From Octopus vulgaris (Eukaryota), in NCBI GenBank assembly GCA_951406725.2, contig OX597839.1, positions 12,772,001 through 12,836,000 of the forward strand: DNA of 64,000 nt, written 5' to 3'. Position numbers and translations under genes: made by a program. A model generated the notes under the pieces. The model saw only the letters and a list, made by a program, of their open reading frames with translations. It had not been told where the DNA came from and made no database searches. This document shows, in pieces, positions 5,094 to 62,948 of the stretch. How positions within the stretch are numbered: position 1 is the stretch's first letter; each line of letters opens with the position of its first letter.

Positions 5094-5218
<125 letters not shown>

Positions 5219-5780: not shown

Positions 5781-5852
5781 TCTCAGACTGCAGTTTCTTT
5801 CTTTTCAGCAATAAAGATAATTTATTTGCTCAGGGAGAATTCTTCAGTGAGA
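5781..5852 (-). ncRNA. Type I hammerhead ribozyme (family B, copy 2)
   Basis: Same motif as 5384-5455, shifted by one 397-bp unit. Confidence 0.75.
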
Positions 5853-16200: not shown

Positions 16201-16460
16201 GAAGAACCTGAGAGACCTGCATGGGGTGGATACAGATGTCTTTAAAATGAAGCTGGATCTCTTCCTGTCAGGTGTCCCAGATGAACCAACTTCACGGCAG
16301 GAGGGGCAGATGAGGGCAGCTGCATCAAACTCTCTCATGCACCAAATAGCAGTTGCTAGAAAGCCTCCATGAAGTGAAACCAAGTAGCAACACCAAATGG
16401 CGGTGCCCCAGCATGGCCACAGCTCATAAGCTGGAACTAGAATCAATCAATCAATCAATC
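13205..16460 (+). mobile_element. CR1-clade LINE ORF2 (APE endonuclease + RT), disrupted
   Basis: EN motifs LNIRGL, LTETHL, YRPP, GDFN, LDLCF in ORF 13270-14859. Frameshift in an A-run near 14800. RT in ORF 15029-16372 has YADT instead of YADDT. (ATCA)n tail. Confidence 0.92.
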
Positions 16461-20580: not shown

Positions 20581-23500
20581 TCACTTGTCCTGCCTGGTCT
20601 TCTCACGTACAGAATATTTCCAAAGGTCTCGGTCTCTGGTCATTTCCTCAGTGAGGCCTAAAGTTCGAAGGTCGTGCTTCACCACCTCGTCCCAGGTTTT
20701 CCTGGGTCTACCTCTTCCACGGGTTCCCTCAACTGCCAGGGATTGGCACTTTCTCACACACCTATCTTCATCCATTCTCGCCACATGACCATACCAGCGC
20801 AATCGTCTCTCTTGCACACCACAACTGATGCTTCTTAGGTACAACATTTCTCTCAAGGTGCTAACGCTCTGTCGAGTATGTACACTGACATTACACATCC
20901 ATCGGAGCATACTGGCTTCATTCCTCACGAGCTTACGCATGTCCTCAGCAGTCACGGCCCATGTTTCGCTGCCATGTAGCATGGCTGTTCGTACACACGC
21001 ATCATACAGTCTGCCTTTTACTCTGAGCGAGAGGCCTTTAGTCACCAGCAGAGGTAAGAGCTCCCTAAACTTTGCCCAGGCTATTCTTATTCTAGCAGTT
21101 ACACTTTCAGCGCACCCACCCCCACTACTGATTTGGTCACCTAGATAACGGAAGCTATCAACTACTTCTAGTTTTTCCCCCTGGAAAGTGACGGAAGTTG
21201 TTTTCTGCAGATTTTCGGAGGTTAATGCTCCCGAGCATCTGCCACATACAAAAACTATCTTCCCAGTTAGCCTACCTTTGACATTGCTGCACCTCTTATG
21301 TGTCCATAGCTTACACTGGGTACATCTTATAGAGTTTCTACCTACACCTTTTCTACAGATCGAGCAGGGCCATCTTCCTGAAGATATTTGTGGATTGTCT
21401 ACCTTTCTACTTATTAGTACTTTGGTTTTAGCTAGGTTGACTCTAAGGCCCCTTGATTCTAAACCCTCCTTCCACACCTGGAACTTCTCCTCCAGTTCTG
21501 ATAGTGACTCAGCAATAAGAGCAAGGTCGTCAGCGTAGAGGAGCTCCCAGGGACAGCCTGTCTTGAATTCCTCCGTAATTGCCTGGAGTACTATGATAAA
21601 TAGGAGGGGGCTGAGTACTGAACCCTGGTGGACCCCAACCTCTACTTTGAATTCTTCTGTGTACATGTTGCCAACCCTAACCTTACTTACGGCATCTCTG
21701 TACATGGCTTGCACAGTCCTCACCAGCCATTCATCTTATCCCTAGTTTCCTCATTGACCACCAGATAAGGGATCGGGGGACCCTATCAAAAGCTTTCTCC
21801 ATGTCAACGAAAGCCAGGTACAGGGGCTTATCTTTGGCTAGGTATTTCTCCTGCAGCTGCCTTACCAGGAATATAGCATCAGTGGTACTTTTCCCTGGCA
21901 CGAACCCAAACTGCATCTCATCTAAACTAACTCTCTCTCTAATTAGTTGGGCTATGACCCTCTCCGTAACCTTCATTACTTGATCCAACAGCTTGATACC
22001 TCTGTAATTATTTGTATCTAGGGCATCACTTTTACCTTTGTAGCAGTTGACTAGTATGCTGCTGCACCAGTCATTGGGTATGACTCCTTCGTGTATCACC
22101 TGGTTGACTATACGGGTGACTAGGTTATAGCCGACACTGCCAGATATTTTGAGCATCTCTGCAGTAATTCCTGATGGGCCTGGGGCTTTCCCTGTCTTCA
22201 TGCTTCTAATTGCCTTAGCTACCACGGAACTATCAACTCGGATAGCTGGTCCCTCTGTAGGGTCAACATTCGGCAGACTCTCTTTATCCCATTCATTTTC
22301 CTCATTCAGTAACCTTTCATAGTGGCGTCTCCAAGCTTCTCTCTTTGCATCCTCATTTAGCGCAAGTGAACCATCCTCCATGCGAACACATTTCTCTCCT
22401 ACCACATCACGATTCTCTCTCACACACTGTCTTGCAACACGAAATACCTCAAGTCTTTCATCCTCACGGCGCAGGACATTGGCAAATTTTCTCTTATCTG
22501 CTTCCCCTCTGGCTAGATAGACCTGTCTCCTAGCTTCCCTTCTGGCAGTCTGATACTCTTCCCTGCTACCACCGTTCTTCCAGGCCTTCCAAGCCTGTTT
22601 CTTTTGTCTAATAGCCCTGTCAACAATATTGTTCCACCACCACGTTATTTTGGGTCTTAAGGGGACTTTGCACCAGCCACAGATCTGGTCAGCGGCTTTC
22701 AGCAGGTTGTCCCTCAGAAACGTCCAGTTGTCTTCTACCCCATGTGTAGCTATACCCCCTTCCACTTCGTCAAAGGCTTCAAGTAACATATCTCTAAATC
22801 TCTGTCCATTCGCAGGGGCTTTAAGCTTCCAGACCCTTCTTCTCCATGTTGGTCGTCTTCTAGTCGCCCTCTTAGTCCTGATCCTAAAGTCACTAACTAC
22901 CAGTCTATGTTGTGGGGTGCATTCTTCGCCTGGGAAGGTTTTGGCATTTATAAGCAGCCATCTTTCCCTTTTTCTGGCAAGGATGTAGTCGATTTGGCTA
23001 GTATGCCGGCCCGATCGGTAGGTGACCAGGTGGCTTGTTGGTTTCCTGAAGTTAGTGTTGCAGACCATAAGACTATTCGCATCGCAGAACTCCAGCAGCC
23101 TGGTTCCCTCCTCGTTGCGGGAACCATAACCGTAGCCTCCATGTACGCCATGGAAGCCCCCAGCATGTCGTCCAACATGCCCATTGAAATCACCAGCCAC
23201 AAAGAGAAGGTCCCTGTCGTTCGTCGATGAGGTGGTCTGCAGTAGGGTGTCATAGAAACTGTCTTTCTGTCCATCGGGTAGCCCTGGCTGAGGGGCATAG
23301 GCCGATATAATGGTTGCTAATCTATTATGAAGCACTATTCTAATCTTAAGTATTCTGTCACTTACTCTGATTACCTCAATTACTCTATCTATCCATTTCT
23401 CAGCGATAAGTATACCCACGCCACCAACCCCGTCAGTGTTCCCTGCCCAGAAAATCTTGTACCTGTGTTCCTTGCCTGTGAGGACCCTAGCAGATCCTCC

Positions 23501-23704
23501 TCTCCACCTTATTTCTTGCATACAACATACATCAACACGTCTCCGTTCAAGCATCTCGACTATCTCGCCAGACCTACCTTTCAATGTGCCAACGTTGAGG
23601 GTGCCCACCCTGAGGGTGTGGGAGGTGTGGGCCTCTGAGACCCTGGGATGAGGGACAGCAGTGTTATATACCTGAAAAGAAAGCTTGCATTTGCCAGATA
23701 TCAT
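20581..23704 (-). CDS. RTE endonuclease/reverse transcriptase (frameshift near 21735)
   Basis: Complete APE and RT motifs with intact YADD, plus a C4HC3 finger after the RT palm. Confidence 0.85.
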
Positions 23705-23867
23705 ACTGAGACTCTAGACTACAACCTGCATAAATTTCACAGGTTTTGCGCTATATGATCACAATAAACCCTACATAGGGGTGCGGGGGGGGGGGGTCAA
23801 GAAAGATAGAAAACAGAAACTTCCGGTTCTGGTGGATGGGTGGGATGGAGGGCGGGCGGGGTCACCT

Positions 23868-24528: not shown

Positions 24529-25403
<875 letters not shown>

Positions 25404-25404
<1 letters not shown>

Positions 25405-25791
25405 CTAGCAGTATCGCCCGGCGTTGCTCAGGTTTGTAAGGGAAATAACTATAAAGCATTTTTAGAGAGTTATAGCCAAAAAATAGCAAAAAATGGGAAA
25501 AAAATGATGGTAAATTTTTTTTTGAGAGTTAAAAAAGGATGGAGTTGCGTCCCCTAGACAGTTTGTGGTTCATGTTTCTGATTCTGGACCCCATGTCGAA
25601 TTTATCGATTCTTTTCAGAACTGGGGGAACTTTTCAAAATTTTGGGTGCGTTAGTTTTGAATTATGACATTGGGCTATATGTGTGTCAAGTTTCATCAGA
25701 ATCGGTTGAAAGCCGTGGTCAGGGTGAGGGTACAAGCAAACAGACACACAGAAACACGCAGAGACAAACTGCCGTTTATATATAGAGAGAT
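25404..25791 (+). mobile_element. Non-autonomous Helitron-like element (Lep1-like termini)
   Basis: Starts actagcagtatcgcccggcgttgctc and ends aagtttcatcagaatcgg...acagac...tttatatatagagagat. Second copy at 52973-53359. Confidence 0.55.
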
Positions 25792-25910
25792 ATACATATA
25801 TATATATATACATACATATATATATATATACATATATATCTATATACACATATATATATACATATATATATATACATACATATATATATATACATATATA
25901 CATATATATC

Positions 25911-25974
<64 letters not shown>

Positions 25975-25980
25975 CATATA

Positions 25981-26270
25981 AAATTTAAAGGACTGACCAC
26001 TAAAAGTGGACGGTCAATATGCTAGATATAGACGTCAAAATCTCTATTTTCCACGAAGAATGTGTTCTCAAATAAAAACTCAGCACAACCCAAAGTGTAA
26101 AAAATAAGCAAGAGAAGTGAAAATATATATATATAAGAAAATAGTTGACAATAGAATAAATTATTATCTTTTGAACCTCACTAGCTTACAGGTGTTTTCA
26201 CTATAAGATGTGGTGGACTCATATTTGAGTGCTTCTGTAATACCCTTCAGCTTCATCAGAGCTTGGAACA
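25981..26270 (-). mobile_element. Older relative of family E with a degenerate hammerhead (26183-26263)
   Basis: Shares aaggactga..cac..aaagtggac.gtcaa.atgctagatatagacgtcaaa with 51308. Minus strand reads agct-CTGATGA...GAAAAC-acct-GTA-agct. Duplicate at about 53551-53840. Confidence 0.6.
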
Positions 26271-26459
26271 TGAACTGCTTTTTGTTTGGGAAGACAAATA
26301 CATTTAAGCATATTTGGAGGAAAGTATTACTGATGTGGATGCATATGTAGTTCATTTTAAGATGTTTTTCGTCTCTTCTCTCTCTAGGTAACTTCATTTC
26401 CTCCTCACTTGTTCCTGTAACTCTTTTTCTTTCTCCTATTGTATAATATGCACACTTAA

Positions 26460-26680
26460 CCCTTTTGTTACCAACCTGGCCAAAACCGCCTCTGGCTCTG
26501 TAGTACAAATGTCTTGTTTTCCTAAGTTTTGAATTAAAATCTTCCACCAAACCTTAGTCACAATTTATGTTCCTAACACTAGCTTAATGGTAACTAAGTT
26601 ATTTTATTAAATTCTTTGTTATATTTAAAATAATTGAAAGAAACACAGAGCATCTCAACAGAAATATGGTAACAAAAGGG
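26460..26680. mobile_element. piggyBac-type MITE
   Basis: TTAA target sites (26456-26459, 26681-26684) and cccttttgttacca/tggtaacaaaaggg terminal inverted repeats. Duplicate at 54030-54250. Confidence 0.85.
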
Positions 26681-26753
26681 TTAAATATATACATTCATGT
26701 TTGTGGAATCAACTCATAATAGATATTTTGTTCATCTTTCATTTTTATTCCAG

Positions 26754-27232
26754 AGAAGATGAAACTGATGCTGTACCATTAAACAATTCTGAAACCAATA
26801 CAGAGCCTGTATGCTTTGAAACGTCCATCAGTAACTCTGATACATTACCTAGTCTTAGTGAAACTCCAGAAACTAAAGCAGTGCCCATAATTAATGAAAA
26901 TGACAGAAATGATGACGATTCAATACCCAAGCCTACAAAAGAAAGCCACAATAAAATAAGGGCAATACCCAAATCTAATGAAGATAGCGACAGTAAAACT
27001 GATGCAGTACCTCAACCTTGTGATTATCCTAGCAAGAATACTCCTGCCATGTTGGTCCGTGAAGGAACTCGTAGCTATAATATGCAAGCAACACTCCTTC
27101 CCAGAGAGGATCCCAGAAAAGAATTTGACCCAAGATGCCATAAAGATGATCTATTTCACAACCAGCCAGACTCCTCTTATAATGATCCTCATTCAGAAGG
27201 AGCAAAAGCTCTAAACATGTTTTCACAATGCT
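26754..27232 (+). CDS. Exon 2: acidic region with periodic IBM-like motifs
   Basis: Pyrimidine tract plus cag acceptor at 26753; open frame EDETDAVPL...ETKAVPI...KIRAIPK...KTDAVPQ. Confidence 0.7.
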
Positions 27233-29586
27233 GTATGCTCCAATCTTTTTTATATTTCCTTAGATAAATTCATCATCATTACTTTGCATTGCTTCCCTAT
27301 CATAATTTCTTAATTATCATTACTTATTATGCTGTCATCATTACTTTTCCATCGCTTATTTATCATCATTACTCTCTTATTATTATTTACAAATATTCTT
27401 TGTAATCATTACTTTCCCGTTATTACTTCATCATCATTACTTCTCCATCAGTCTTTGTCAATCATTACTTTGTCATCATTGCTATTTTTACTTTGTTAGC
27501 AACACTTCGTCATTATTATTTTGTTATCCTTACTGTTTCATCCTGAATTACCTACATCATCTACATCATCGCTTTGTTTTCCCTTTGTCATAATTCATCA
27601 TCATCTGATTTGGAAACTTACTTGTACCAATACAACTCTCCCATTCCAAGTATCCCGAATAAGCCATATGGCATGCACATCTGGCCTGGGTTTTAATCAC
27701 CTTGGTCTTTCATGAGCTAAAATATCTCACTTGCACTTGCCACAACTACAGATAAAAGCAGTATTTTGCTAACAAGACAATCCTGATCATTAACACTTTG
27801 TTGTTTGTTCATTCACTCAGCATCTAGTGGCATTTGTCACTGATTCAAGAAATTAGTTTGCCAAAATAATTCACATTCACCATGCTGCATCCCATAACTT
27901 CAGTGTACCCTGGCTCAGGTAGTTTCATGCTATTTAGGCCTTATCTGGGACTCTGACAGGTGCTACTACTCAGGCCAAAGTAGACCTGGGAACAACAAAC
28001 AGTGGCTAACAGAGGTGGTTCCACATTCCTCAAAACCCTGGTGGTCCTGAACTACTGGATGGGGTTTCACTCTTTAGCATTTAAACTGGCCATATCTAAC
28101 TCAAATATTCTTATTTCTTTATTGCCCTCAAGGGGCTAAACATAGAGGGGACAAACAAGGACAGACAAAGGAATTAAGTCGATTATATCAACCCCAGTGC
28201 GTAACTGGTACTTAATTTATCGGCCTCGAAAGGATGAAAGGCAAAGTCGACCTCGGCGGAATTTGAACTCAGAACATAACCAGTCTGCCAAATGAAGCAC
28301 TAGCTCTGCTCATTCTGTATGTGATTTCCTGGTCCAGTCATGCATTATCTGAGATGGTACTGCCTAGGTATTTGAATGCTTTGCATTGGGCCAGCCTTTC
28401 ATATCTAATAGTGATGTTTTCTTCTGTTACAGGCACATGTAGGTTCTCCACAGGTTGGTAAAGGCATTTGGTTTTTCTAATGTTAATCTTTAAGCTGAAT
28501 TTTTGTGCAGCTCTAGCAAAGTTACCTACCAGATTCTGCATATCTTCAGCACTGTAGGCAACTGGTGCACTATCATCAGCATCTTTTGCAATAGGGCCTT
28601 TATAATGCATGTCTTTGCTTTATATTGTGCAGCCTTGAACAGATCAACATCATGCCACATCTAGATGTAAGCCCCACTCCAACTTCCTTAAAGGCAACTT
28701 CCAACACTGCTGTGAGATAGAGGGAGAACAGTGCTGGAGCAAGTATGCACCCCTGACTAACTTCATTTATCACTGCAACCTCACTTGAGGTATTACTATT
28801 TTGTACTATAAATGCTTGCATTCCTTCGTGTAGGACTGATACTGTGTCAAAAGCCATTGTGACATCTATGAAAACTACATACATAGGCATATTCAGCTCA
28901 ATGCATTTTTCCTGAATTTTGCATAGACAGAAGATCATATCCACAGTGCTTCTGCAATGGAAGCCACACTGAGTCTCAGGTAAGACAGATATACTCATTT
29001 AGTCTGTTTAATAGAATATGAGCCAAGATCTTCCCAGCTATTGATAGAAGAGATATTCCTCAGTAGTTTCCAGAGTTCACTTTACAACCTGTTTTGAAGA
29101 CAAGAATGATGCCTGTGTCTTTCCAGTCTTGTGGAACCGTTTCCGTCTTCCAGATCTGGAGCACAGTGCTATACAGGCTTTTAATAATCTCTACACCTCC
29201 ATGCTTCCAGATTTCAGTGGGTATTTACTTTCGTTCAGTTGTTTGATTACGTCATTGAATTGATTGTAAACAGGTTTGTCATCTAAGGATTGGATGATTA
29301 GCTGTTGCATAACCTTCTTGAGAGTGTCATAGTCCATTGATACTTGGGATATTAAGTAGGCTGTCAAAGTGACTGGCAAATCTATCAAGGATCTCCAGGT
29401 TTTCCTGGAATATCGTTTGGCCACCAAGACCTATGAGTTTTGTTGCGCCTCTACTCTGTGGCTCGCATACCATTCAAAGTCCTGAATAACATGTTTTCAT
29501 ATCATTTTTATCAGCATAATGCTGTAGCTCTTCAGGGTGTTTGTACTTAATCATTTAGATCACCTGTGAACTAAACCCCCATACTT

Positions 29587-29633
<47 letters not shown>

Positions 29634-30683
29634 AGTAAAGGGTAATGACCTCCTTCAGTCATGAATGACCATGGGATTGCACCTAGGTTCCCCTCTGAGG
29701 CACAAGTCTGGTCAAGTTTTTTTGTGGAAAACCAGCTGTCACCCATGCATACCAGCCCCCCTCTCCGCACCACTGATGTTGTCTAAGGGAAAGGTAATGA
29801 CTAATACAGCTTGGCACCAGTGATGTCACAACTCATTTCTACAGCTGAGTGAACTGGAGCAATGCGAAATAAAATGCTTTGCTCAAGAAAACAACACAGA
29901 GCCCGATTCAGGAATTGAAGTCATTACCTCATGATTGTGAACTTGATGCTCTAACCACTGGGCCATACATACACATGCACACAAACGGGCTTCTTTCAGA
30001 TTTTATCTATCAAATCTACTGAAAAGATTTTGGTTGACCTGGGGCTATATTAGGAGAGTCTTGTCCAAAGTACCTTGCACTGGGATTGAACTTGGGACTA
30101 TGTGGTTGAGAAGCAAACTTCTTAATACACAGCCATGCCTATGTATATATTATATTCTCAAAAATTTATGCTCTAATGCTAAGTTAGAATTTTATACATT
30201 TATTCTAGCAAATATTAATATTGGAATGAGCAATGTATTCATTGGTAACGCTAATGTCACAAATGTATACCCTTCAGAAGATATGAGGATAAATTGCATG
30301 AATCATAGGGAGAAATTCAGCAAATATTTCAGTAAGTAAACGCAGTTTCTCTTTGTTGATTTCATATTAATCTTTTATTTGTTTCAGTTATTAGACTGTT
30401 GCAATGCCGGGGCACTGCCTTGAGGGATTTTAGTCGAACTATTCGACCCCCAGCACTCATTTCCTTTTTAAACCTCTTTACTCTTTTACTTGTTTCAGTC
30501 ATTTGACTGTGGCCATGCTGGAGCACCACCTTTAGTCGAGCAAATTGACCCCAGGACTTATTCTTTGTAGGCCTAGTACTTATTCTATCAGTCTCTTTTG
30601 CCGAACCGCTAAGTTACAGGGACGCAAACACACCACCATCGGTTGTCAAGTGATGTTGGGGAGACAAACACAAACACATAAAT

Positions 30684-30732
<49 letters not shown>

Positions 30733-33700
30733 TAAATACGACGGGCTTCTTTTCAGTTTCCGTCTACAAATCCACTCACAAGGCTTTGGTCAGCCTAAGG
30801 CTATAGCAGAAGACACTTGCCCAAGATGCCACGCAGTGGGAATGAACCCAGAACCATCTGGTTGGTAAAGCAAGCTACTTACCACACAGCCACTCCTGCA
30901 CTTAGTAGGAGTGGCTGTGTGGTAGTTATTCTCTCAGCGCTCTTTTGTTGAACTTCTAAGTTACAGGGACATAAACACACCAACACTGGTTGTCAGTCAG
31001 TGTGGGTGGCGGGGGGAGGAGACAAGCACAGTCACAAACACACATGCGCACGCATATATACACAATGAGCTTCTTTCAGTTTCTGTCTACCTGTCTACCA
31101 AACCTCACAAAGCTTTGGTGGGCTTGAGGCTAAAGCAGACGACACTTGCTCAAAGTGCCATGCTATGGGACTGAACTTAGAATCATTTGGTTTGGAAACA
31201 AACTTCTTACTACACAGTCATACCTGTAGATTTTGTATAATATTTTTGTAAGGCTTTCAATGTCATGAAATTGCATTTGACACCCTAGCCCTTAACTGAT
31301 GAGGAGATGGTGTCCCATGTCCTTTTTCTGTTCATTTGTTTATTACGCTACATGTTTGACTCCTGAAAATATTATTCATGTAACACAATGCACTCCTTAT
31401 TTTTTTGTACCTATACACACACACACACATGTATATAAGTGAATAAAATGACAGTGAAGTGTATGCAGGTTGAAACCTATTTGTACTTATACATAGGCGC
31501 AGGAGTGGCTGTGTGGTAAGTAGCTTGCTAACCAACCACATGGTTCCGGGTTCAGTCCCACTGCGTGGCATCTTGGGAAAGTGTCTTCTGCTATAGCCCC
31601 GGGCCGACCAATGCCTTGTGAGTTGATTTGGTAGACGGAAACTGAAAGAAGCCTGTCGTACATATGTATATATATGTGTGTGTATATGTCTGTGTTTGTC
31701 CCCCTAGCATTGCTTGACAATCGATGCTGATGTGTTTACGTCCCCATCACTTAGCGGTTCGGCAAAAGAGACCGATAGAATAAGTACTGGGCTTACAATG
31801 AATAAGTCCTGGGGTCGATTTGCTCGACTAAAGGTGGTGCTCCAGCATGACTGCAGTCAAATGACTGAAACAAGTAAAAGAGTAAAGAGTATACGATATG
31901 TCGGTCAAGCATACATGCAAGCTTGCTTTCTAGATGCAAAATGCTATCCCCCATCCCTGTGTCTCCCTGGCCCACACCTTCCACACCCTCAGATTTGCCA
32001 CACACATTTAATGGGGCACATTGATAGGCTGAAAGGTAAGTTTGGGGAGATTGTTGAGATGCTTGAACAGAGGAATGTAGAGTGTGTTGCATCTGAGAAG
32101 TAAGGTGCAGAGAAGGTTCTGCTAGGTTTCTCATAGGCAAAGACCATAGGTATAAAATCTTCTGGGTAGGAAACAGTGATAGGGTTGGGGGTTGTCCTTG
32201 GGAGCTTCTGTACACTGATCACCTTGTTCTTATAGTTGAATCACTACCTGACCTAGTGAAGCAATATCAGGTCTAGAAACAAGATCTGGAATCTAAGGGC
32301 CTTAGGGTTAATTTTGAAAAAACCCCAACTTATTTTTTAAAATGGATTGATAAGGTAATCGAGGTAGTCAGAGTGTGTGATAGAATACTTAGGCTTAGAC
32401 TGGTGTTGCAATGTGGAGCAGCAACCATTAGCTTGGGCTATTCCCCTCAGCTGAGACTACCTGATGAACAGAAAGACCGATTTTATGACACCCTTTTGCA
32501 GACCACCTCATTGATGAATGTCAGGGACCTTCTCTTTGTAGCTGGCAACTTCAATGGGCATGTTGGACAACATCTTGGTAGCTTCCATGCCATGCATGGT
32601 GGCAACAGATTTGGTTCCTGTAATGAGGAGGGAGCCAGGCTGCTGGAGTTCTGTGATTCAAATGACCTTATGATCTACAATACTAATTTCAGGAGACCTC
32701 CCAGTCACCTGTTCACCTACCAATCTAGAGGGTACACTAGTCAGGTTGACTACATTCTTGCCAGAAAATGGGGAAGATGGCTACTTATAAATGCCAAAAC
32801 TTTCCCAGGTGAAGAATGCACCCCACTCAACATAAGTTAGTTGTTAAATACTTCAGGATCAGAGATAAATGGCTGCCCAGATGACAACCTGTATGGAAAA
32901 GAAAGGTTTAGAAGCTTAAGGATCATCTGAATGGACAGAGATTTAGAGATGTGTTACTTGAAGGATTTGCTGGAAAAGAGGAAGATATAGCAACATATAA
33001 TGTGGAAAACAACTGGAGGTTCCTACAAGACAACCTGTTAAAGGCTGCTGTTTAAATCTGCTAAGTCCCTTCTTGATCTGTGGTGACATGGTGATGGAAC
33101 AGTATAGTTGACAGGGCCATTAGAGAAGAAAAGAAACAAGCCTGGAAGTGTGATGGTATCAGGAAACTATATCAGATAGTCAGAAGGAAAGTTATGAGAT
33201 AGGTGTACTTAGCCAGGGAAAAAGCAGAAAAGAAGTTTGCCAATGTTCTGCTACATGAGGACCAGAGACTTGAAGTGTTTCAGATTGCAAGACAGTGTGT
33301 GAGAGAAAATTGTGATGTCATAGGAGAGAAATGTGTCTGCATGGATGATAGTTTACTTGCATTTAATGATTCTGCTAAGAAAATGGCTTGGAAATGCCAT
33401 TATGAAAGGCTGTTAAATGTGGAGAACTAATGGGAGGAGAGTCTGCCAGATGTTGGCCCTACTGAGGGACCAGCTATCTGAATCGATAGTAACTTGATAG
33501 ATAAAGCAATTAAAGACATGAAGAGAGGAAAAGTCCCTGGCCCATCAGGAATCACTGCTGAGATGCTTAAAATATCTCGAGTAGGATATAGCTTAGTCAC
33601 TAGTATATTTAATCAGATTGTCCATGAGGGAGTCATACCCAATGATTGGTGTAGCAGCATTATAGTCAACTGCTACAAAGACAAAAGTGATAATTACAGA

Positions 33701-36700
33701 GACATCAAATTGCTGGACCATGTGATGAAAGTCATAGAAAGAGTCATAGCTCAATTAATTAGGAACAGAGATAGTGTAGATGAGATGCGGTTCAGATTTG
33801 TGCCAGGCAGGAGCATGACTGATGCCATAATCCTGGTTAGACAACTGCAGGAGAAATATTTGGCTTAAAATAAACCTCTGTACCTGGCTTTTGTCAACAT
33901 GAAGAAAGCCTTTGACAGGGTGCCCTGCTCCCTTATCTGGTGGTCAATGTGAAAGCTAATAGTGAATGAGTGTTTAGTTAGAGTGGAACAAGCCATGTAC
34001 AGGAATGCTGCCAGTAAGGTGAAGGTTGGCAATGAATTCAGTGTATAGGTGAGAGTCCACCAAGGCTCAGTTCCCAGCCCCCTCCTGTTTATCTTAGTCC
34101 TCCAGGCCTTAACAGAGGAATTCAAGATTGGTTGTCTTTGGGAGCTTCTCTATGCTGATGACCTTGTTCTTATAGCTGAATCACTGACTGACCTAGTGAA
34201 GCAATTTCGGATCTAGAAACAAGATCTAGAATCTAAGAGCCTTAGGGTTAATTTAGCAAAAACCAAAAGTCCTAGTAAGTAGGGAAACAGATAAATCACA
34301 AATCCCTTCTAGGAGATGGTCCTGCTTGGTATGTAAGAAGAGCGTAGGTAGAAACTCCTCATGCAAACTTTGAACACATAAGAGGTGCAGCAGTGTCAAA
34401 GGAAGGTTAACTAAGAATATAGTCTTTGTGTGTGGCAAATGTGCAGGTACAATAAGCACTAAAAATATGCAGACAATAGACTCCCTCAAATGTTTGGGTG
34501 GATCATTAGAAGTAGTAGTATATGCATAACAGAGTGTAAATGATTTAAGGGGAAAACTGGGTATAAGAGGCATCATATGTTGTGTGCAAGAGAGAAGACT
34601 GTGCTGATTTGGTCATGTGATGCCTATGGATTAGGATAGCTGCATAAAGAAGTGCTGAGCTCTAAATGTGGAGGAACATATGGAAGGAGTAGACCCAGGG
34701 AGACATGGAATGATGTGGTGAGAAAAAATGGTGAAGATGATATATATTTAATACACACAATGTATGTTTTTATGTGCTACTATTAGTTTCACATGCTGAG
34801 GATTTGCCAGTCAGTGTTTTATAACATGTCTGGTGTCCTAGCACAATCATCAGACAGTGCCAACATGGCATAAGTGTCTGATGACTGTGCTGGGACACTG
34901 GATGTGTTATAAAACACTGATTGGCATGTTCTCAGTACATGAAACTAATAGTAGCACACAGAAACATATATTATGTTTTTAGTAAATATTATTTATCTCT
35001 CCCTGGATGGAGTACTTTTTTTGTTGATCTTACCATTCTGAAACAGTACAGTATATGTGGTCAGTTGAGGATGGGGGACAAGAGAGAGATGTATGGAATT
35101 GGGAGCAGATGATAAGTGAGCATGGCATCAGCAACACTTACATTATTTGGAAAATGCAATGGAAAGAGTACAGTGAAATTGTCATGGAGAGTGGAATGTC
35201 CAGCATTTAAGATAGAGTGTGAAATTTGATGGCGATTTGACTGTTATTTCTAAACAAAAAAGTAAATATGAAACATTTCAATATAAATTCTTAAGAATCA
35301 TGGAAATATTTTTGCAGAGTCTAATACAATACTGACTGAGAAACACCTCAACAAAATATCCATATACTTAGGGAATAAATGGAAGCGTGTTGGTAAGTAT
35401 AAAATATACATTGCTTTAGATGTTTTGCTTCTATCATATCTTTATTTTTTACTTGCTTCAGCCATTATGTTGTTGCCATGCTGGAGCAGCACATCGAAAA
35501 ATTTTTAGTCGGATGAATCCAATACTTTCTTTTCTTTTTTTTTTTCTTTAAGCCCGGTGCTTATTCTATCAGTCACTTTTGCTGAACTGCTAAGTTACAG
35601 AGATGCAAACACACCAACCCTGGATGACAAGCAGTGGTGGAAACATGCACACACACGTGTGACAGGCTTCTTTCAGTTTCCATCTACCAAATGCACTCAC
35701 AAGGTTTTGGTTGGGCTGGGGCTATAGTAGAAGACACTTGGCCAAGGTCCCATGCAGTGGGAATGAACCTGGAATCATGCAGTTGGGAAACAAATCTTCT
35801 TGCCACCTAGCCACCCCTACACCTATCTAACTACAAAATAATGTTTAGTGAGTGATACGATACTTAATGTGATGAAGAAAAGATTTCAGTTAAAGTTGTT
35901 CTTGCTAGGAGGAGAAGAAAAGAATCGTCACCCTTTTGCTACCATACTTTTGTTGGAACACTTCTTTTGTTGTAATTAATGTTGAAAATAATGAATTTAT
36001 GAATATAACTGTTTTGTTATTAAGCTTCTTCTTTATGACTTTAACCCTCCAATGTGGAGTATGTGTGTGACCTCCTTCGGTCACGAATGACCACGGAATT
36101 GCACCTAGAAAGTTACCCTCCAAGGCACAAGTCTGGGCAAGGTTGTTTATGGAAGACCAGCAGTCGCCCATGCATATCACCCTTCCCTCTCCACATCACC
36201 GATGTTATCCAAGGGAAAGGCAAAGGCCGATACAGCTTGGCACCATTGACGTTGCAGCTCATTTATTAACGTGCAAGTGGCTGAGCACTCCACAGATACG
36301 TGTACCCTTAACGTAGTTCTCGGGGAGATTCAGGGTGACACAGAGTGTGACAAGGCTGGCCCTTTGAAATACAGGTATAACAGAAACAGGAAGAAAGAGT
36401 GAGAGAAAGTTGTGGTGAAAGAGTACAGAAGGGATCGCCACCACCCCCTGCAGGAGCCTCGTGGTGCTTTAGGTGTTTTCGCTCAATAAACACTCACAAT
36501 GCCCGGTCTGGGAATCGAAACCGCGATCCTACGACCGTGAGTCCACTGCCCTAACCACTGGGCCATTGCGCCTCCACAATGTGGAGTATAGGCCACTTAT
36601 AATTGAAATCCTTGTCGCATAATTTTTCGCTTCTGTACTTTGCCATGAATGTCCCCCTTTCTCTAGTTCCTTTTGTGTTGATCTATGCCATGAGTTCTTA

Positions 36701-39205
36701 GGCCTGCCTTTCTTTCTATATTCATCCGGATTCCACTGTAAAACACTTTCCGCTACATTTGGTGTGTCTTTTCAAATTGTGCTACCAATCCACTTCCACT
36801 TTTGTTAACCCTTTCGTTACTATATTTCTGACCAAAATACACCCCTCATGAGTTTCAATTAAATTCTAAAATAATCATGAATCTAGGCTTGTTTCATTAA
36901 ATAACTGTAACTTTTTTACTTATCAACATATTAATGTGATATTTGGAACATAATTAAAGAAAGGGTTCTTAATCAATTCTATTGCATAACTTTTGTCTCA
37001 AAGTGACTTTAATTACAGGTAAATCCAGGTAAATTGAGCAAAAGGTAAAAATATTAAAATTTTGTTTAAACATCACCACAGAAAATGAATCATCAGCTAA
37101 TATTCAAATGGGTATGCAACAAAATTTTGATAAAGAAGAATTGTGCACATTACTATTTCATCAGTTGAATTTAATGCACAACAGGTGTACCATAAAGGTG
37201 GAATAAATTGAAATACTTGAATCCAGAACTAAAGAAATCGGTCAAAAAATAATATACGGCCCTGGTTATGGTATGGAAGTGATAAATTCCAGACCACATC
37301 GTTCCCTAGGCCATGCTGACTAACATTATTTTCCCTGTATAAAAACTAAATCCACGCAGTACCCAGTATTTGCTTCACAAATTTTCCGAAATTTGAACCC
37401 CCATTTTGTGTTTGTTTACGTTCTGCGTAAGTTTGTTTCCACATTGATCACTTCAAACAATAACATCCGGACCACATCATACCCTAAGCCATGCTGACTT
37501 AACATTAGTTTCCCTGTATAAAAACTAAATCCACAACAGTACCCAGTATTTGTTTCACAAATTTTCCAATTCGGAATCAATGCTTGATAACATGAAACTC
37601 CTATCCATTTTCAAAGTTGAAGAAAAATCGATGCCGAAAAAATGTGGAAAAAAATCTCCCAAAATTCAGGGAATTAAAATTACACGTCGATCTTTGTACA
37701 AAATTGTAGATGAACTGTTTACGAAGCATAATCACGTGTTTTCACGAATGTAATAAAGAGATTTGCTCTGATATTCTCATTTAAATATGAATAGGTAAAT
37801 TCGGGCGGGTTTGGTCACATTAACCAAAATTTTTTTCGAGCGGCTTTGGGCGGTTTGGTAACGAAAGGGTTAAATCGAAACTTAATTTGTTCTTTGCCAT
37901 ATTGTGTTCAGGCCATCAAATTTTAGGAAAGTTGAATGGGCTAATCACCCGTGCAATGGATTTTCACATTGATTACGAAAACACTGATAATTGGCAAAAT
38001 TTGTAGCATAGAACCAAAGTCAGTATCAAAAAGTTAGTGTTAACGAAATCGAATTCAAGACGAAGGGAGACAACTTCGAAATTGTAACTAATCAAAGTTT
38101 GAAATAATACAATGAGGAGATAAAGACATTATTAGCTAGAGAGGCTTAGTGAGTACAGTGGCAGCTGTGGACATATTTTGGGTACAACCTTTATGCTAAG
38201 CGTCAGTCACATCATCATGATCTTCCCTTATTTGGTAATATAGATCTTTTCACTTTTCCTACATTAACTGAATATGGCCAGTTTCCAGGTTTATCTGACC
38301 TATATATATTTTCTTCTGGATGGGATGGGATGGTGGTCCATCACAGGATTACTCATTATTGCCTGCTGAGTGGATTGGAGGGTTAATGTGAAAGGAAGTA
38401 TATGACTTAATAGAGCTGTTGCTGTTTAGTTATGTATTTAGGAGTGGTTGTAATTTACTTAGGGAATTTATGATATCTGAGGGGCAGCTGATGATGGAGA
38501 GATTTTGGATTATTCCAGCAGTTGTTGGAATTGCAGAAGCAACAGCAACTGTTAGTACAACGGCTACAGAAGAAAACAGAAAATATATCAAAACGATGTG
38601 TTATAATACTATTCCACAGCCATACCAACAATCCAGGAATCGAAACCACAATCTTACAATCACGAGTCCAACACTTTAACTACTTAGCCACATGCCTCCA
38701 CACTGCATCTTATGAAGTTCTCCATGTAATATCTATGTACCTTTAGTGCCATTTTCTGTATGACGTATCTATGTTTAGGTCATTTAGCTTATGTGCTTGT
38801 CCACATCACTTATAATCATTTCAGTATCACTAATTATTATCTCGATTCTTTCTATTTTCAGTCCCCAGATTCTGCTTGTTTCCATTTCCAGATCTTCATA
38901 TTTGGATATTTTTTTTTTCATTATCTATTTTTGTCCTTCGGAATTGATATATGACTTACTATTATTATTCTTCTTGTCAATGATATAATATTTTATTTTC
39001 AGGTCGGGATCTAGAAATTAAAAACGCTGAGCTGGAAAACATAGAAGCAAACAACCAAAATAATGTTGAAGAACAAAGTTTTCAAATGTTAAACAGATGG
39101 TTACAGATTTCCAAGCCGGACACATGTACAAGTGGCAATTTAGCTAATGCTCTCTTTGAGGCTGGATGTTATGATTCAATTCAATTTTTACCATTAGAGG
39201 AGTGA
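26754..39205 (+). CDS. imd: IMD/RIPK1-like adaptor, copy 1 (exons 26754-27232, 30209-30331, 35318-35392, 39003-39205; exon 1 not found in window)
   Basis: AG/GT-bounded exons with compatible phases join in frame to give a caspase-site/IBM-like array, a RHIM-like motif and a death domain. The exon-2 donor (T|GTATGC at 27232) is the weakest junction. The symbol is assigned from domain architecture only. Confidence 0.75.
28105..28277 (-). mobile_element. tRNA/Nin-like SINE
   Basis: B-box-like gagttcaaattcc and gcctttcatcctttcgaggccgataaattaagtacc on the minus strand. Duplicate at about 55675-55846. Confidence 0.6.
28280..29500 (-). pseudogene. Degenerate RTE/BovB-like LINE RT fragment
   Basis: LPETQCGF, STVDMIF, QEKCIE, QGCILAPALF and FKYLGS motifs in broken frames. 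Duplicate at about 55850-57070. Confidence 0.8.
29635..29968 (-). mobile_element. tRNA-derived SINE (second family)
   Basis: tggcccagtggttagagc head on the minus strand; body related to 36063-36576. Confidence 0.6.
30209..30331 (+). CDS. Exon 3: RHIM-like motif (NINIGMSNVFIGNANVTNV)
   Basis: ttattctag acceptor and A|gtaagt donor, 123 nt, phase 1-1; VFIG-x-x-N resembles the RHIM core. Confidence 0.75.
30477..30900 (-). mobile_element. tRNA-derived SINE, full length
   Basis: Reverse complement of 31495-31890; a more decayed copy follows at about 30930-31225. Confidence 0.85.
31495..31890 (+). mobile_element. tRNA-derived SINE, full length
   Basis: A-box tggctgtgtgg, B-box gggttcagtccc, internal TA/TG repeat and CR1-like tail gaaacaagtaaaagagtaaagag. 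Duplicate at 59051-59446. Confidence 0.88.
31900..34725 (+). pseudogene. Decayed RTE LINE (same family as 19764-24490)
   Basis: Colinear EN-RT-finger similarity with many stops and frameshifts. Duplicate at about 59456-62280. Confidence 0.88.
34763..34968. repeat. Long imperfect palindrome (MITE-like hairpin)
   Basis: tgtgctactattagtttca...tcagaca / tgtctga...tgaaactaatagtagcaca arms of about 95 bp. Duplicate at about 62319-62524. Confidence 0.8.
35318..35392 (+). CDS. Exon 4: death domain N-terminal helices (LTEKHLNKISIYLGNKWKRVG)
   Basis: tttgcag acceptor and G|gtaagt donor, 75 nt; the LGxxWKxVG pattern is typical of death domains. Confidence 0.85.
35440..35825 (-). mobile_element. SINE, diverged
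   Basis: Reverse complement similarity to 31495-31890. Confidence 0.7.
36063..36576 (-). mobile_element. tRNA-derived SINE with 13-bp target-site duplication
   Basis: TSD caatgtggagtat at 36050-36062 and 36577-36589; head tggcccagtggttagggc...ggtttcgattccc on the minus strand. Confidence 0.85.
36809..37869. mobile_element. Non-autonomous piggyBac element
   Basis: TTAA sites (36805-36808, 37870-37873) and ccctttcgttac/gtaacgaaaggg terminal inverted repeats; internal duplication near 37293 and 37471. Confidence 0.85.
39003..39205 (+). CDS. Exon 5 (terminal): remainder of the death domain
   Basis: ttttcag acceptor; RDLEIKNAELENIEANNQNNVEEQSFQMLNRWLQ...GNLANALFEAGCYDSIQFLPLEE*, stop TGA at 39203-39205. 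Confidence 0.88.
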
Positions 39206-39382: not shown

Positions 39383-39795
39383 TCTTTTACTCTTTTACTC
39401 GTTTCAGTCATTTGACTGTGGCCATGCTGGAGCACCGCCTTTAGTCGAGCAAATCGACCCCGGGACTTATTCTTTGTAAGCCCAGTACTTATTCTATCGG
39501 TCTCTTTTGCTGAAGCGCTAAGTGACGGGGATGTAAACACACCAGCATCGGTTGTCAAGCAATGCTAGGGGGACAAACACAGACACACAAACATATACAT
39601 ACACACACATATATATATATACATATATACGATGGGCTTCTTTCAGTTTCAGTCTACCAAATCCACTCACTAGGCATTGGTCGACCCGGGGCTATAGCAG
39701 AAGACACTTGCCCAAGATGTCACGCAGTGGGACTGAACCCGGAACCATGTGGTTGGTTAGCAAGCTACTTACCACACAGCCACTCCCGCGCCTAC
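39383..39795 (-). mobile_element. tRNA-derived SINE, young full-length copy
   Basis: Close reverse complement of 31495-31890. Confidence 0.88.
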
Positions 39796-45347: not shown

Positions 45348-45373
45348 ATGGATGGATACAAAGAAATACATCG
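45348..45373 (+). CDS. Exon 1 (coding part) of IMD-like copy 2: MDGYKEIH(R)
   Basis: Strong Kozak context accaccATGG; phase-2 donor CG|gttagt matches the phase-2 acceptor of exon 2 (CG+A = Arg). Confidence 0.65.
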
Positions 45374-52328: not shown

Positions 52329-52645
52329 GTAATTATTCCATTTAGTATATTTCTTTTGTCTCATCCATTGCTTTAGGTCGTGCTGAATTTTATTTTTATT
52401 TGAGAACAAAATCTTTGTGGAGAATGGCGATTTGACGTCTATATCTAGCATGTTGACTGTCCACCTTTTCGTGTTCAGTCCTTAATTGGTATATATAAAT
52501 ATTTTAATCTTCGGATTCTTTTTAATGTGCTAGACCACTGGTTTTAATTGACTAATATCAATTTCTACCCTTAATTTTTATATACAAATATATATATATA
52601 TACAAATATATACATATATATATATATATATATACATATATATAC

Positions 52646-52702
<57 letters not shown>

Positions 52703-52717
52703 TATACATATATATAC

Positions 52718-52897
<180 letters not shown>

Positions 52898-52902
52898 TAT
52901 AC

Positions 52903-52973
<71 letters not shown>

Positions 52974-53474
52974 CTAGCAGTATCGCCCGGCGTTGCTCAG
53001 GTTTGTAAGGGAAATAACTATAAAGCATTTTTAGAGAGTTATAGCCAAAAAATAGCAAAAAATGGAAAAAAATTATGGTAAATTTTTTTTTGAGAGTTAA
53101 AAAAGGATGGAGTTGCGTCCCCTAGACAGTTTGTGGTTCGTGTTTCTGATTCTGGACCCCATGTCAGAATTTATCGATTTTTTCAGAACTGGGGGAACTT
53201 TTCAAAATTTTGGCTGCGTTAGTTTTGAATTATGACATTGGGCTATATGTGTGTCAAGTTTCATCAGAATCGGTTGAAAGCCGTGGTCAGGGTGAGGGTA
53301 CAAGCAAACAGACACACAGAAACACGCACAGACAAACTGCCGTTTATATATAGAGAGATATACATATATATATATACATACATATATATATATACATATA
53401 TATCTATATACACATATATATATACATATATATATATACATACATATATATATATACATATATACATATATATC

Positions 53475-53544
<70 letters not shown>

Positions 53545-56500
53545 CATATAAAACTTAAAGGACTGACCACTAAAAGTGGACGGTCAATATGCTAGATATA
53601 GACGTCAAAATCTCTATTTTCCACGAAGAATGTGTTCTCAAATAAAAACTCAGCACAACCCAAAGTGTAAAAAATAAGCAAGACAAGTGAAAATATATAT
53701 ATATAAGAAAATAGTTGACAATGGAATAAACTATTATCTTTTGAACCTCACTAGCTTACAGGTGTTTTCACTATAAGATGTGGTGGACTCATATTTGAGT
53801 GCTTCTGTAATACCCTTCAGCTTCATCAGAGCTTGGAACATGAACTGCTTTTTGTTTGGGAAGACAAATACATTTAAGCATATTTGCAGGAAAGTATTAC
53901 TGATGTGGATGCATATGTAGTTCATTTTAAGATGTTTTTCGTCTCTTCTCTCTCTAGGTAACTTCATTTCCTCCTCACTTGTTCCTGTAACTCTTTTTCT
54001 TTCTCCTATTGTATAATATGCACACTTAACCCTTTTGTTACCAACCTGGCCAAAACCGCCTCTGGCTCTGTAGTACAAATGTCTTGTTTTCCTAAGTTTT
54101 GAATTAAAATCTTCCACCAAACCTTAGTCACAATTTATGTTCCTAACACTAGCTTAATGGTAACTAAGTTATTTTATTAAATTCTTTGTTATATTTAAAA
54201 TAATTGAAAGAAACACAGAGCATCTCAACAGAAATATGGTAACAAAAGGGTTAAATATATACATTCATGTTTGTGGAATCAACTCATAATAGATATTTTG
54301 TTCATCTTTCATTTTTATTCCAGAGAAGATGAAACTGATGCTGTACCATTAAACAATTCTGAAACCAATACAGAGCCTGTATGCTTTGAAACGTCCATCA
54401 GTAACTCTGATACATTACCTAGTCTTAGTGAAACTCCAGAAACTAAAGCAGTGCCCATAATTAATGAAAATGACAGAAATGATGACGATTCAATACCCAA
54501 GCCTACAAAAGAAAGCCACAATAAAATAAGGGCAATACCCAAATCTAATGAAGATAGCGACAGTAAAACTGATGCAGTACCTCAACCTTGTGATTATCCT
54601 AGCAAGAATACTCCTGCCATGTTGGTCCTAAAGGAACTCGTAGCTATAATATGCAAGCAACACTCCTTCCCAGAGAGGATCCCAGAAAAGAATTTGACCC
54701 AAGATGCCATAAAGATGATCTATTTCACAACCAGCCAGACTCCTCTTATAATGATCCTCATTCAGAAGGAGCAAAAGCTCTAAACATGTTTTCACAATGC
54801 TGTATGCTCCAAACTTTTTTATATTTCCTTAGATAAATTCATCATCATTACTTTGCATTGCTTCCCTATCATAATTTCTTAATTATCATTACTTATTATG
54901 CTGTCATCATTACTTTTCCATCGCTTATTTATCATCATTACTCTCTTATTATTATTTACAAATATTCTTTGTAATCATTACTTTCCCGTTATTACTTCAT
55001 CATCATTACTTCTCCATCAGTCTTTGTCAATCATTACTTTGTCATCATTGCTATTTTTACTTTGTTAGCAACACTTCGTCATTATTATTTTGTTATCCTT
55101 ACTGTTTCATCCTGAATTACCTACATCATCTACATCATCGCTTTGTTTTCCCTTTGTCATAATTCATCATCATCTGATTTGGAAACTTACTTGTACCAAT
55201 ACAACTCTCCCATTCCAAGTATCCCGAATAAGCCATATGGCATGCACATCTGGCCTGGGTTTTAATCACCTTGGTCTTTCATGAGCTAAAATATCTCACT
55301 TGCACTTGCCACAACTACAGATAAAAGCAGTATTTTACTAACAAGACAATCCTGATCATTGACACTTTGTTGTTTGTTCATTCACTCAGCATCTAGTGGC
55401 ATTTGTCACTGATTCAAGAAATTAGTTTGCCAAAATAATTCACATTCACCATGCTGCATCCCATAACTTCAGTGTACCCTGGCTCAGGTAGTTTCATGCT
55501 ATTTAGGCCTTATCTGGGACTCTGACAGGTGCTACTACTCAGGCCAAAGTAGACCTGGGAACAACAAACAGTGGCTAACAGAGGTGGTTCCACATTCCTC
55601 AAAACCCTGGTGGTCCTGAACTACTGGATGGGGTTTCACTCTTTAGCATTTAAACTGGCCATATCTAACTCAAATATTCTTATTTCTTTATTGCCCTCAA
55701 GGGGCTAAACATAGAGGGGACAAACAAGGACAGACAAAGGAATTAAGTCGATTATATCAACCCCAGTGCGTAACTGGTACTTAATTTATCGGCCTCGAAA
55801 GGATGAAAGGCAAAGTCGACCTCGGCGGAATTTGAACTCAGAACATAACCAGTCTGCCAAATGAAGCACTAGCTCTGCTCATTCTGTATGTGATTTCCTG
55901 GTCCAGTCATGCATTATCTGAGATGGTACTGCCTAGGTATTTGAATGCTTTGCATTGGGCCAGCCTTTCATATCTAATAGTGATGTTTTCTTCTGTTACA
56001 GGCACATGTAGGTTCTCCACAGGTTGGTAAAGGCATTTGGTTTTTCTAATGTTAATCTTTAAGCTGAATTTTTGTGCAGCTCTAGCAAAGTTACCTACCA
56101 GATTCTGCATATCTTCAGCACTGTAGGCAACTGGTGCACTATCATCAGCATCTTTTGCAATAGGGCCTTTATAATGCATGTCTTTGCTTTATATTGTGCA
56201 GCCTTGAACAGATCAACATCATGCCACATCTAGATGTAAGCCCCACTCCAACTTCCTTAAAGGCAACTTCCAACACTGCTGTGAGATAGAGGGAGAACAG
56301 TGCTGGAGCAAGTATGCACCCCTGACTAACTTCATTTATCACTGCAACCTCACTTGAGGTATTACTATTTTGTACTATAAATGCTTGCATTCCTTCGTGT
56401 AGGACTGATACTGTGTCAAAAGCCATTGTGACATCTATGAAAACTACATACATAGGCATATTCAGCTCAATGCATTTTTCCTGAATTTTGCATAGACAGA

Positions 56501-57155
56501 AGATCATATCCACAGTGCTTCTGCAATGGAAGCCACACTGAGTCTCAGGTAAGACAGATATACTCATTTAGTCTGTTTAATAGAATATGAGCCAAGATCT
56601 TCCCAGCTATTGATAGAAGAGATATTCCTCAGTAGTTTCCAGAGTTCACTTTACAACCTGTTTTGAAGACAAGAATGATGCCTGTGTCTTTCCACTCTTG
56701 TGGAACCGTTTCTGTCTTCCAGATCTGGAGCACAGTGCTATACAGGCTTTTAATAATCTCTACACCTCCATGCTTCCAGATTTCAGTGGGTATTTACTTT
56801 CGTTCAGTTGTTTGATTACGTCATTGAATTGATTGTAAACAGGTTTGTCATCTAAGGATTGGATGATTAGCTGTTGCGTAACCTTCTTGAGAGTGTCATA
56901 GTCCATTGATACTTGGGATATTAAGTAGGCTGTCAAAGTGACTGGCAAATCTATCAAGGATCTCCAGGTTTTCCTGGAATATCGTTTGGCCACCAAGACC
57001 TATGAGTTTTGTTGCGCCTCTACTCTGTGGCTCGCATACCATTCAAAGTCCTGAATAACATGTTTTCATATCATTTTTATCAGCATAATGCTGTAGCTCT
57101 TCAGGGTGTTTGTACTTAATCATTTAGATCACCTGTGAACTAAACCCCCATACTT

Positions 57156-57204
<49 letters not shown>

Positions 57205-57779: not shown

Positions 57780-57902
57780 CAAATATTAATATTGGAATAA
57801 GCAATGTATTCATTGGTAACGATAAAGTCACAAATGTATACTCTTCAGAAGATATGAGGAGAAAATGCGTGAATCATAGGGAGAAATTCAGCAAATATTT
57901 CA
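57780..57902 (+). CDS. RHIM-like exon, copy 2 (NINIGISNVFIGNDKVTNV)
   Basis: Same splice sites as 30209-30331, with 7 substitutions. Confidence 0.7.
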
Positions 57903-58238: not shown

Positions 58239-58289
<51 letters not shown>

Positions 58290-62873: not shown

Positions 62874-62948
62874 AGTCTAATACAAAACTGACTGAGAATC
62901 AACTCAACAAAATATCCAAATACTTAGGGAATAAATGGAAGCGTGTTG
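62874..62948 (+). CDS. Death-domain exon, copy 2 (LTENQLNKISKYLGNKWKRVG)
   Basis: Same splice sites as 35318-35392, with 4 substitutions. Confidence 0.8.

Follow-up and report, generated by a model that had tools for sequence, protein, structure and literature searches.

A kinase-free death-domain gene in Octopus vulgaris

We analyzed a 64,000-nucleotide stretch of the Octopus vulgaris genome (assembly GCA_951406725.2, contig OX597839.1, positions 12,772,001 to 12,836,000, forward strand), hereafter the window, together with the sequence around it. The window holds four of the five coding exons of a gene, denoted A1, whose 301-aa product has a predicted caspase site and IAP-binding motif (IBM) near the N-terminus, a RHIM-like stretch, a RIPK1-type death domain, and no kinase domain. 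This order of parts, reported in a preliminary description of the sequence as that of Drosophila IMD, stood against shuffles and controls.

The preliminary description had spliced exons of 479, 123, 75, and 203 nt to a 26-nt first exon borrowed from a neighbouring copy of the gene (copy 2). Exons 2-5 were retained, with AG acceptors on all four and GT donors on exons 2-4, and they give 906 nt in frame with a 26-nt exon 1. The borrowed exon, encoding MDGYKEIHR, was replaced. We used transcript-like contigs from four runs (four studies; 24 runs were listed, 20 of them holding the stretch), which we take to be RNA. In 4/4 runs a single contig spans A1 exon 2 without differences and runs into an upstream exon encoding MDGSSELHR. 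This exon lies outside the window, 2.4 kb upstream of its start, and intron 1 measures ~29 kb. The MDGYK exon and the O. sinensis first exon (window position -21288) were both ruled out as A1 exon 1, since the four contigs carry the exon at -2381. The proposed junctions were further borne out in 3/4 runs (X5, X6, and X11), where the same contig extends to exon 5. There, 197 bases separate exon 2 and exon 5, which is consistent with exons 3 and 4 given one shared base. Exon 3 was seen directly as a contig piece in X11, and we infer the presence of exon 4 in the mRNA from the record positions of three contigs. Beyond the A1 stop the contigs go on as 3' untranslated region (UTR) to ~39396-39415.

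Exon 1 has an in-frame stop upstream of its ATG, and six kinase queries gave no match better than E 0.21 in the 464 kb around A1. The 301-aa protein is therefore kinase-free, as first described. It was also described as hidden, but the gene is annotated in O. vulgaris, in O. bimaculoides ("RIPK1-like"), and in O. sinensis (uncharacterised); homologue searches by shared words returned only 2, 3, and 3 proteins, and atlas hits, which scored below 0.9, served as leads only. The motif reading is the new part. The annotation as a RIPK1 kinase is a misnomer because the protein has no kinase domain, and an N-terminal Ser/Thr kinase domain is required by the definition of RIPK1 (PMC12119088; citations here refer to the available passages of each paper). 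The O. vulgaris record CAI9741230.1 (453 aa) is identical to our A1 model over its first 301 residues. We rejected its extension as a wrong fusion with copy 2, because the contigs pass from exon 5 into the 3' UTR. In the AlphaFold model of the O. bimaculoides orthologue, residues 1-197 are of low confidence and unstructured (predicted local distance difference test ~45-54 across residues 1-200), and a confident helical bundle follows.

Table 1 Features of A1 and the neighbouring copies, in window coordinates (position 1 is the first letter of the window; numbering continues beyond both ends). A slash within a motif marks the predicted cut.
Feature	Position	Strand	Basis
A1 coding exon 1, 26 nt, MDGSSELHR (upstream of window)	-2381..-2356	+	joined to exon 2 in 4/4 runs
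A1 exon 2, 479 nt, residues 9 (end) to 168, disordered N-terminal part	26754..27232	+	AG/GT ends, frame, contigs
Predicted caspase site and IBM, DETD/AVPL (D14/A15)	26758..26781	+	sequence, shuffles, O. bimaculoides orthologue
Second possible site, SKTD/AVPQ (D92/A93)	26992..27015	+	sequence
A1 exon 3, 123 nt, INIG and VFIG RHIM-like cores, linker into death domain	30209..30331	+	RHIM profile, X11 contig
RHIM-like core INIG (residues 171-174)	30214-30225	+	24.5 bits
RHIM-like core VFIG (residues 178-181)	30235-30246	+	17.1 bits
A1 exon 4, 75 nt, death domain start	35318..35392	+	splice ends, frame
A1 exon 5, coding 203 nt including stop, remainder of death domain	39003..39205	+	Pfam Death, contigs of X5, X6, X11
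First arm of 11-kb, 99.0%-identical duplication	25006..36026		second arm 52579-63581
B-type coding exon 1, MDGYKEIHR, upstream of copy 2	45348..45373	+	identity to other copies
Copy 2 exon 2, 478 nt, 1-nt deletion near 54629	54324..54801	+	comparison with A1
Copy 2 exon 3, differs from A1 at 7 positions, each non-synonymous	57780..57902	+	comparison with A1
Copy 2 exon 4	62874..62948	+	comparison with A1
Copy 2 last exon, B-type, 52% identical to A1 (just beyond window)	64218-64423	+	comparison with A1

Predicted caspase site and IAP-binding motif

The site first described, DETD/AVPL, is present in the A1 sequence as a predicted caspase site, and AVPx is a Smac-type IBM. A second possible site follows at D92 and a third, weaker one (NDDD/SIPK) at D64 (64/65). 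Of 20000 shuffles, 38 contained the pattern D-A-[VIT]-P-hydrophobic, which like the RHIM profile below was picked after seeing the data, and 4 had it among the first 40 residues. A set of three D[AS]xP motifs turned up in 18 of 20000. The O. bimaculoides orthologue has DEID/AVPL at the equivalent site, and residues 1-30 are the best-conserved part between the two octopuses (27/30 identical). Three D/AxP[VI] motifs were found in a 299-aa protein ~30% identical to A1 (P0016), a count not reached in 20000 shuffles.

We restricted a further count to 48 of 149 death-domain hits, those with a Met start, no more than 400 aa, and 90 or more residues ahead of the domain, after dropping four octopus-locus rows. 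Of these, 16 had a RHIM-like tetrad, and 12 of the 16 showed an early D[AS]xP, against 1 of the 32 that had no tetrad; the 12 are not 12 independent events, because most are related arthropod-type proteins. A complex prediction with an octopus BIR domain, zinc, and the 30 residues after the predicted cut scored 0.30 against a mark of 0.34, and carries no weight either way.

RHIM-like stretch and death domain

We built our own 20-column RHIM profile on windows anchored by hand in other hits (33 windows; leave-one-out scores -10.4 to 34.8). The scores of A1 were unmatched by its shuffles (0/2000), and 28 other death-domain proteins reached 6.9 at most. Scores above all shuffles were also found in O. 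bimaculoides (12.8), Argonauta (17.3), and P0016 (20.9). Two B-type paralogues from the cluster described below had no RHIM signal, with 712 and 119 of 2000 shuffles as high. The RHIM-like stretch first described thus stood, while its core shifted from VFIG to the better-scoring INIG. The O. bimaculoides cores are ITIG and LSIG, and that of P0016 is near-canonical (VQFG). Neither the A1 cores nor those of the O. bimaculoides orthologue fit the RIPK1 tetrad (V/I)-Q-(V/I)-G. In cryptic RHIMs the fourth-position Gly alone is invariant (PMC10268257), and this Gly is present in A1.

As first described, A1 has a death domain. Pfam Death matched exon 5 alone at E 7.9e-7 and 4/4 full proteins at 3e-10 to 6e-10; the domain is split over exons 4 and 5. 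Its best solved match was RIPK1 (E 1e-11), followed by TRADD/FADD (2e-4). As controls, octopus FADD matched FADD first, an ankyrin-RING death domain gave no clear preference, and the profile of our own arthropod IMD-like alignment matched RIPK1 first. The top Foldseek matches of the O. bimaculoides AlphaFold model were RIPK1 death domains. The Pfam scan found no death effector domain (DED) of the kind that FADD carries at its N-terminus, and octopus FADD is a separate gene. A kinase-bearing octopus RIPK1 was not found with two kinase-RHIM-death queries, a weak search for multi-exon genes, and the three top kinase loci had no death domain in their open frames.

Descent of the A1 death domain

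We constructed a FastTree phylogeny of 143 death domains over 92 columns, once 11 duplicated or fragmentary sequences and 6 short rows had been removed; its deep branches were not resolved. In a 65-row, 95-column tree, from which unlabelled hits and 8 labelled rows were left out, the octopus locus, P0016, and a family of ankyrin-RING-death proteins formed one clade (94/95). The label "arthropod IMD" in these analyses rests on published site motifs and two source names. The preliminary description had expected kinship with IMD and RIPK1. No grouping with an unrelated family was found; the nearest death domains were those of the ankyrin-RING-death proteins.

We compared four placements in approximately unbiased (AU) tests on 36 rows. 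Placement with arthropod IMD-like proteins cost 0.68 log units of likelihood, against 10.7 with kinase-bearing RIPK1. A profile-profile comparison of the non-arthropod and arthropod sets gave a match of 99.8%, over the death domain only. A reciprocal profile test on eight octopus death domains was discarded because all profile members had been retrieved with the orthologue; in it all profiles preferred A1, even the FADD profile over octopus FADD.

The death-domain trees may fit either IMD orthology or an independent loss of the kinase from RIPK1. Both architectures are present in Spiralia. The annelid Owenia has a kinase-RHIM-death protein (P0027), and kinase-free death-domain proteins, most with a RHIM-like stretch, were found in the gastropods Nucella (P0113) and Plakobranchus (P0052) and the nemertean Tubulanus (P0086 and P0159).

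Gene cluster and divergence of exon 3

The locus was first described as a tandem pair. Instead, we found six copies within ~165 kb, namely A1, copy 2, B1, a fourth (A-type) copy, B2, and B3. Copy 2 is chimeric, with B-type first and last exons. Its first exon shares ~98% identity with those of four further copies and 70% with the A1 exon-1 region. The deletion in its exon 2 falls in a C run and may be real or an assembly error; it shifts the frame and truncates the protein at ~161 aa, ahead of both RHIM and death domain. A third copy of the 11-kb block lies at ~108.6-119.2 kb, where the fourth copy ends at an assembly gap (119213). The three B-type paralogues (269-270 aa; 74-162 kb) keep the death domain and lack the first Asp/Ala site, and B2 no longer has an AG acceptor at exon 3. 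Annotations of B-like proteins exist for both O. sinensis and O. bimaculoides as well, so the A/B split predates these species.

We compared A1 with the two near-identical copies. The introns differ at 24/8608 (0.28%) and 23/8617 (0.27%) positions, and exon 2 at 1/478 and 3/479. Exon 3 differs at 7/123 positions from copy 2 and at 5/123 from the exon at 113506-113628, a 15- to 20-fold excess over the introns (binomial P 7e-8 and 2e-5). The differences amount to 10 distinct codon changes, four in the RHIM stretch and six in the linker, every one of them non-synonymous; no changes were found in the ~100 nt of intron flanking exon 3 on each side. Exon 4 differs at 4/75 positions; two of these differences match B-type copies and may reflect gene conversion. 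Diversifying selection on the RHIM/linker exon is likely, and it is the simplest reading of these counts. Were the copies allelic, the exon-3 signal would point to balancing selection.

The extra copies and their exon-3 differences could instead be assembly artefacts, from unpurged haplotypes or errors, with one A and one B gene and a spurious signal of selection. This concerns the cluster and not A1. The 99% identity across 11 kb, the deletion in a C run, and the gap directly after the fourth copy point that way, as does the fact that O. sinensis and O. bimaculoides each yielded only a single A-type and a single B-like protein. However, errors would not hit exon 3 alone and non-synonymous positions alone while sparing 100 nt of flanking intron, and the A/B chimeric junctions are unlike a plain haplotype duplicate. 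We therefore consider an artefact rather unlikely, if still to be reckoned with.

Tandem repeats of ~400-414 bp were observed at 5209-7819 and at 74.6-85.0 kb, the latter an array of ~25 units that separates a B-type exon 1 from exon 2. Remnants of long interspersed element (LINE)-type endonuclease/reverse transcriptase were recognized by eye from translations in introns (13255-16369, 20584-23713, 32340-34476, and 59896-62032), and the window holds many short interspersed element copies and TA microsatellites.

Death-domain exons shared with ankyrin-RING-death genes

Using the last exon of A1 as a genome query, we obtained 101 matches at E <= 1 and 55 at E <= 0.001, five of the latter within the cluster. 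Among ten opened loci (contigs C29, C31, and others), the acceptor position was common to all ten and the 75-nt exon to nine, and a RING exon was seen directly in one. The death domains at these loci are similar to those of annotated ankyrin-RING-death proteins and are nested in the IMD-like clade. This suggests that the two death-domain exons may have spread to the family by exon shuffling from A1.

Proposed function and alternative explanations

By analogy with known systems, we consider it somewhat probable that A1 is an IMD-like adaptor for caspase/IAP/NF-kB signalling. The steps of assembly through the RHIM, FADD binding, cleavage, ubiquitination, and NF-kB output are modelled on fly IMD (PMC6626034, PMC10268257, PMC13506858) and on zebra-mussel RIPK1, whose kinase-free C-terminus activates NF-kB in a RHIM-dependent manner (PMC12119088). 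The RHIM-like stretch would nucleate assembly of A1, seeded by a receptor as in fly IMD, and A1 would recruit FADD and a caspase-8-like enzyme. A cut at Asp14 would then expose the IAP-binding end, and IAP-dependent ubiquitination of the lysine-containing disordered region would lead to NF-kB activation. The B-type neighbours may act as dampeners or decoys, because they keep the death domain and lack both motifs. The same genome contains FADD, 26 BIR matches, 3 PGRP matches, and a caspase-8-like gene (contig C22, near 23.32-23.34 Mb) that has tandem DEDs and the His and Cys motifs of a caspase.

We also observed at least five multi-BIR IAP genes arrayed in tandem on contig C2 (40.77-41.03 Mb) and, on contig C14 (75.56-75.60 Mb), two single-exon genes whose products resemble a CARD joined to a death domain (CRADD-like, labelled by eye).

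Several observations weigh against reading A1 as an IMD-like adaptor, besides the relatedness of the 12 proteins and the choice of patterns after the fact. The RNA nature of the four runs is a guess; none is recorded as RNA. Pfam RHIM, proposed as a check on the motif, had no match in the A1 exons or the four full proteins; the model also missed 2/7 vertebrate-type and 5/5 invertebrate-type RIPK1-like kinases, taxon labels that are our own, by sequence likeness, except for Owenia. Between the two octopuses the RHIM stretch is less conserved (19/28) than the linker (108/130) or the death domain (73/91). A genome search with a vertebrate RIPK1 death domain gave one match, FADD and not the A1 locus, and a search with a beetle IMD-like protein gave none. 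No RHIM-bearing receptor was found with Pfam RHIM on the genome, where the one match lay in a 16-aa frame. The clade of A1 joins the arthropod IMD-like set at only 80/89, with a stray FADD included, and its nearest death domains are those of the ankyrin-RING-death family. The death domain cannot settle descent because the AU tests rejected none of the four placements (arthropod IMD p 0.47, FADD 0.28, kinase RIPK1 0.175, gastropod-type 0.08). Finally, DxxD is the preference of effector caspases (caspase-3/7). Insect IMD sites (LKSDA, LTTDA, LETDA, and LEKDA) have Leu at P4, where the octopus protein has Asp (PMC6626034).

This P4 Asp would fit a RIPK1 derivative that lost its kinase and is cut at DETD by effector caspases in cell death. 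The AVPL end, which resembles that of Smac, would then antagonize IAPs in the manner of Smac/Reaper, or cleavage would switch signalling off as in RIPK1. Several candidate sites stand in a row in A1, and its grouping with kinase-bearing RIPK1 survives the AU test. Full kinase-RHIM-death RIPK1 proteins occur in Spiralia (PMC12119088; Owenia P0027), and some of these carry D/A sites between kinase and RHIM. However, the A1 site lies near the N-terminus, placed as in the IMD-like proteins, and grouping with arthropod IMD-like proteins has the lowest likelihood cost. We therefore regard this origin and role as unlikely. The shared exon boundaries and nearest death domains could also mean that A1 is mainly a death-domain scaffold for the ankyrin-RING-death ligases, with the N-terminal motifs and RHIM-like stretch as relics. 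The fast drift of the RHIM stretch and the intact-looking frames of three B-type paralogues without either motif agree with this. It is quite improbable, given that residues 1-30 are the best-conserved part of the protein, that both motifs recur in P0016 and the RHIM also in Argonauta, and that wholly non-synonymous change in exon 3, faster than in the introns, is not expected under relaxed selection.

Extending the IMD-like adaptor reading, we speculate that cephalopods keep a working IMD-type amyloid/caspase/IAP relay. In octopus its adaptor would have multiplied into RHIM-diversifying activators and motif-less decoys, and would have donated its death-domain exons to dozens of ankyrin-RING ligases. 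We hold this extended picture to be doubtful. If it is true, the ankyrin-RING ligases would form a variable sensor layer feeding the adaptor via death-domain contacts.

Comparison with known systems and significance

A1 shares with arthropod IMD the lack of a kinase, an N-terminal Asp/Ala-x-Pro site followed by an IBM (at the sequence level), a cryptic RHIM-like tetrad ending in Gly (by our own profile; Pfam RHIM was negative), and a C-terminal death domain most like RIPK1. Insect IMD, at 240-280 aa (PMC6626034), is near A1 in size. In arthropods, DREDD/caspase-8 cleaves IMD, which engages an IAP, undergoes K63-linked ubiquitination, assembles into amyloid together with a RHIM-bearing receptor (PGRP-LC/LE or SRB2), and activates Relish. 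In contrast to arthropod IMD, A1 carries two or three candidate sites where IMD has one, a pair of tetrads offset by seven residues, and a six-copy cluster with motif-less paralogues. The RIPK1 of vertebrates, lancelets, zebra mussel, and annelids resembles A1 in having the closest solved death domain, with a RHIM-like stretch shortly before it. It differs in its kinase and its (V/I)Q(V/I)G core, whereas A1 has INIG/VFIG and a cut that would leave an IBM at the new N-terminus. The Imd of the nemertean Lineus ruber is likewise a spiralian death-domain protein; it is supported by its death domain, and the authors' RHIM survey of the transcriptome was negative in the available text (PMC9835746). 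The octopus ankyrin-RING-death family (MIB1-like annotations) has the same two-exon death-domain cassette and intron phase, with ankyrin repeats and a RING finger where A1 has the caspase/IBM/RHIM region.

IMD-like sequences have been reported in bivalves, and priority is uncertain for that reason. Our literature search turned up no publication on either this octopus gene or a mollusc protein that combines an IBM, RHIM, and death domain. Available passages mention an octopus "RIP" transcript (PMC4199593) and an oyster RIP1 and a mussel "RIP-like" (PMC4892480), and report no RIPK in Aplysia and Biomphalaria (PMC9334734, PMC8995041). Insect IMD RHIMs have been linked to RIP1/3, in a paper whose available text gave no word match for molluscs (PMC4262963). 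Nothing relevant was found in PMC3308963 and PMC5484132. The accession supplement of PMC12119088, as available, has no "Octopus" entry, and 12 other supplement files gave no hits. The gene itself is known; what is new about A1 is the motif reading, along with the rapid evolution of the RHIM exon and the sharing of the death-domain cassette.

Imd was stated in 2023 not to have been found in molluscs or brachiopods (PMC9835746, available passages). Under a "RIPK1 kinase" label, we found a mollusc protein with the full sequence grammar of IMD, and an IMD-type immune switch may thus operate in molluscs. The burst of purely non-synonymous change in the RHIM and linker suggests pathogen pressure or self-specificity acting on an amyloid signalling motif. 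A1 is also a candidate hub for antibacterial immunity in farmed octopus, and it provides a concrete gene for asking whether IMD-type signalling predates arthropods or arose repeatedly by loss of the RIPK1 kinase.

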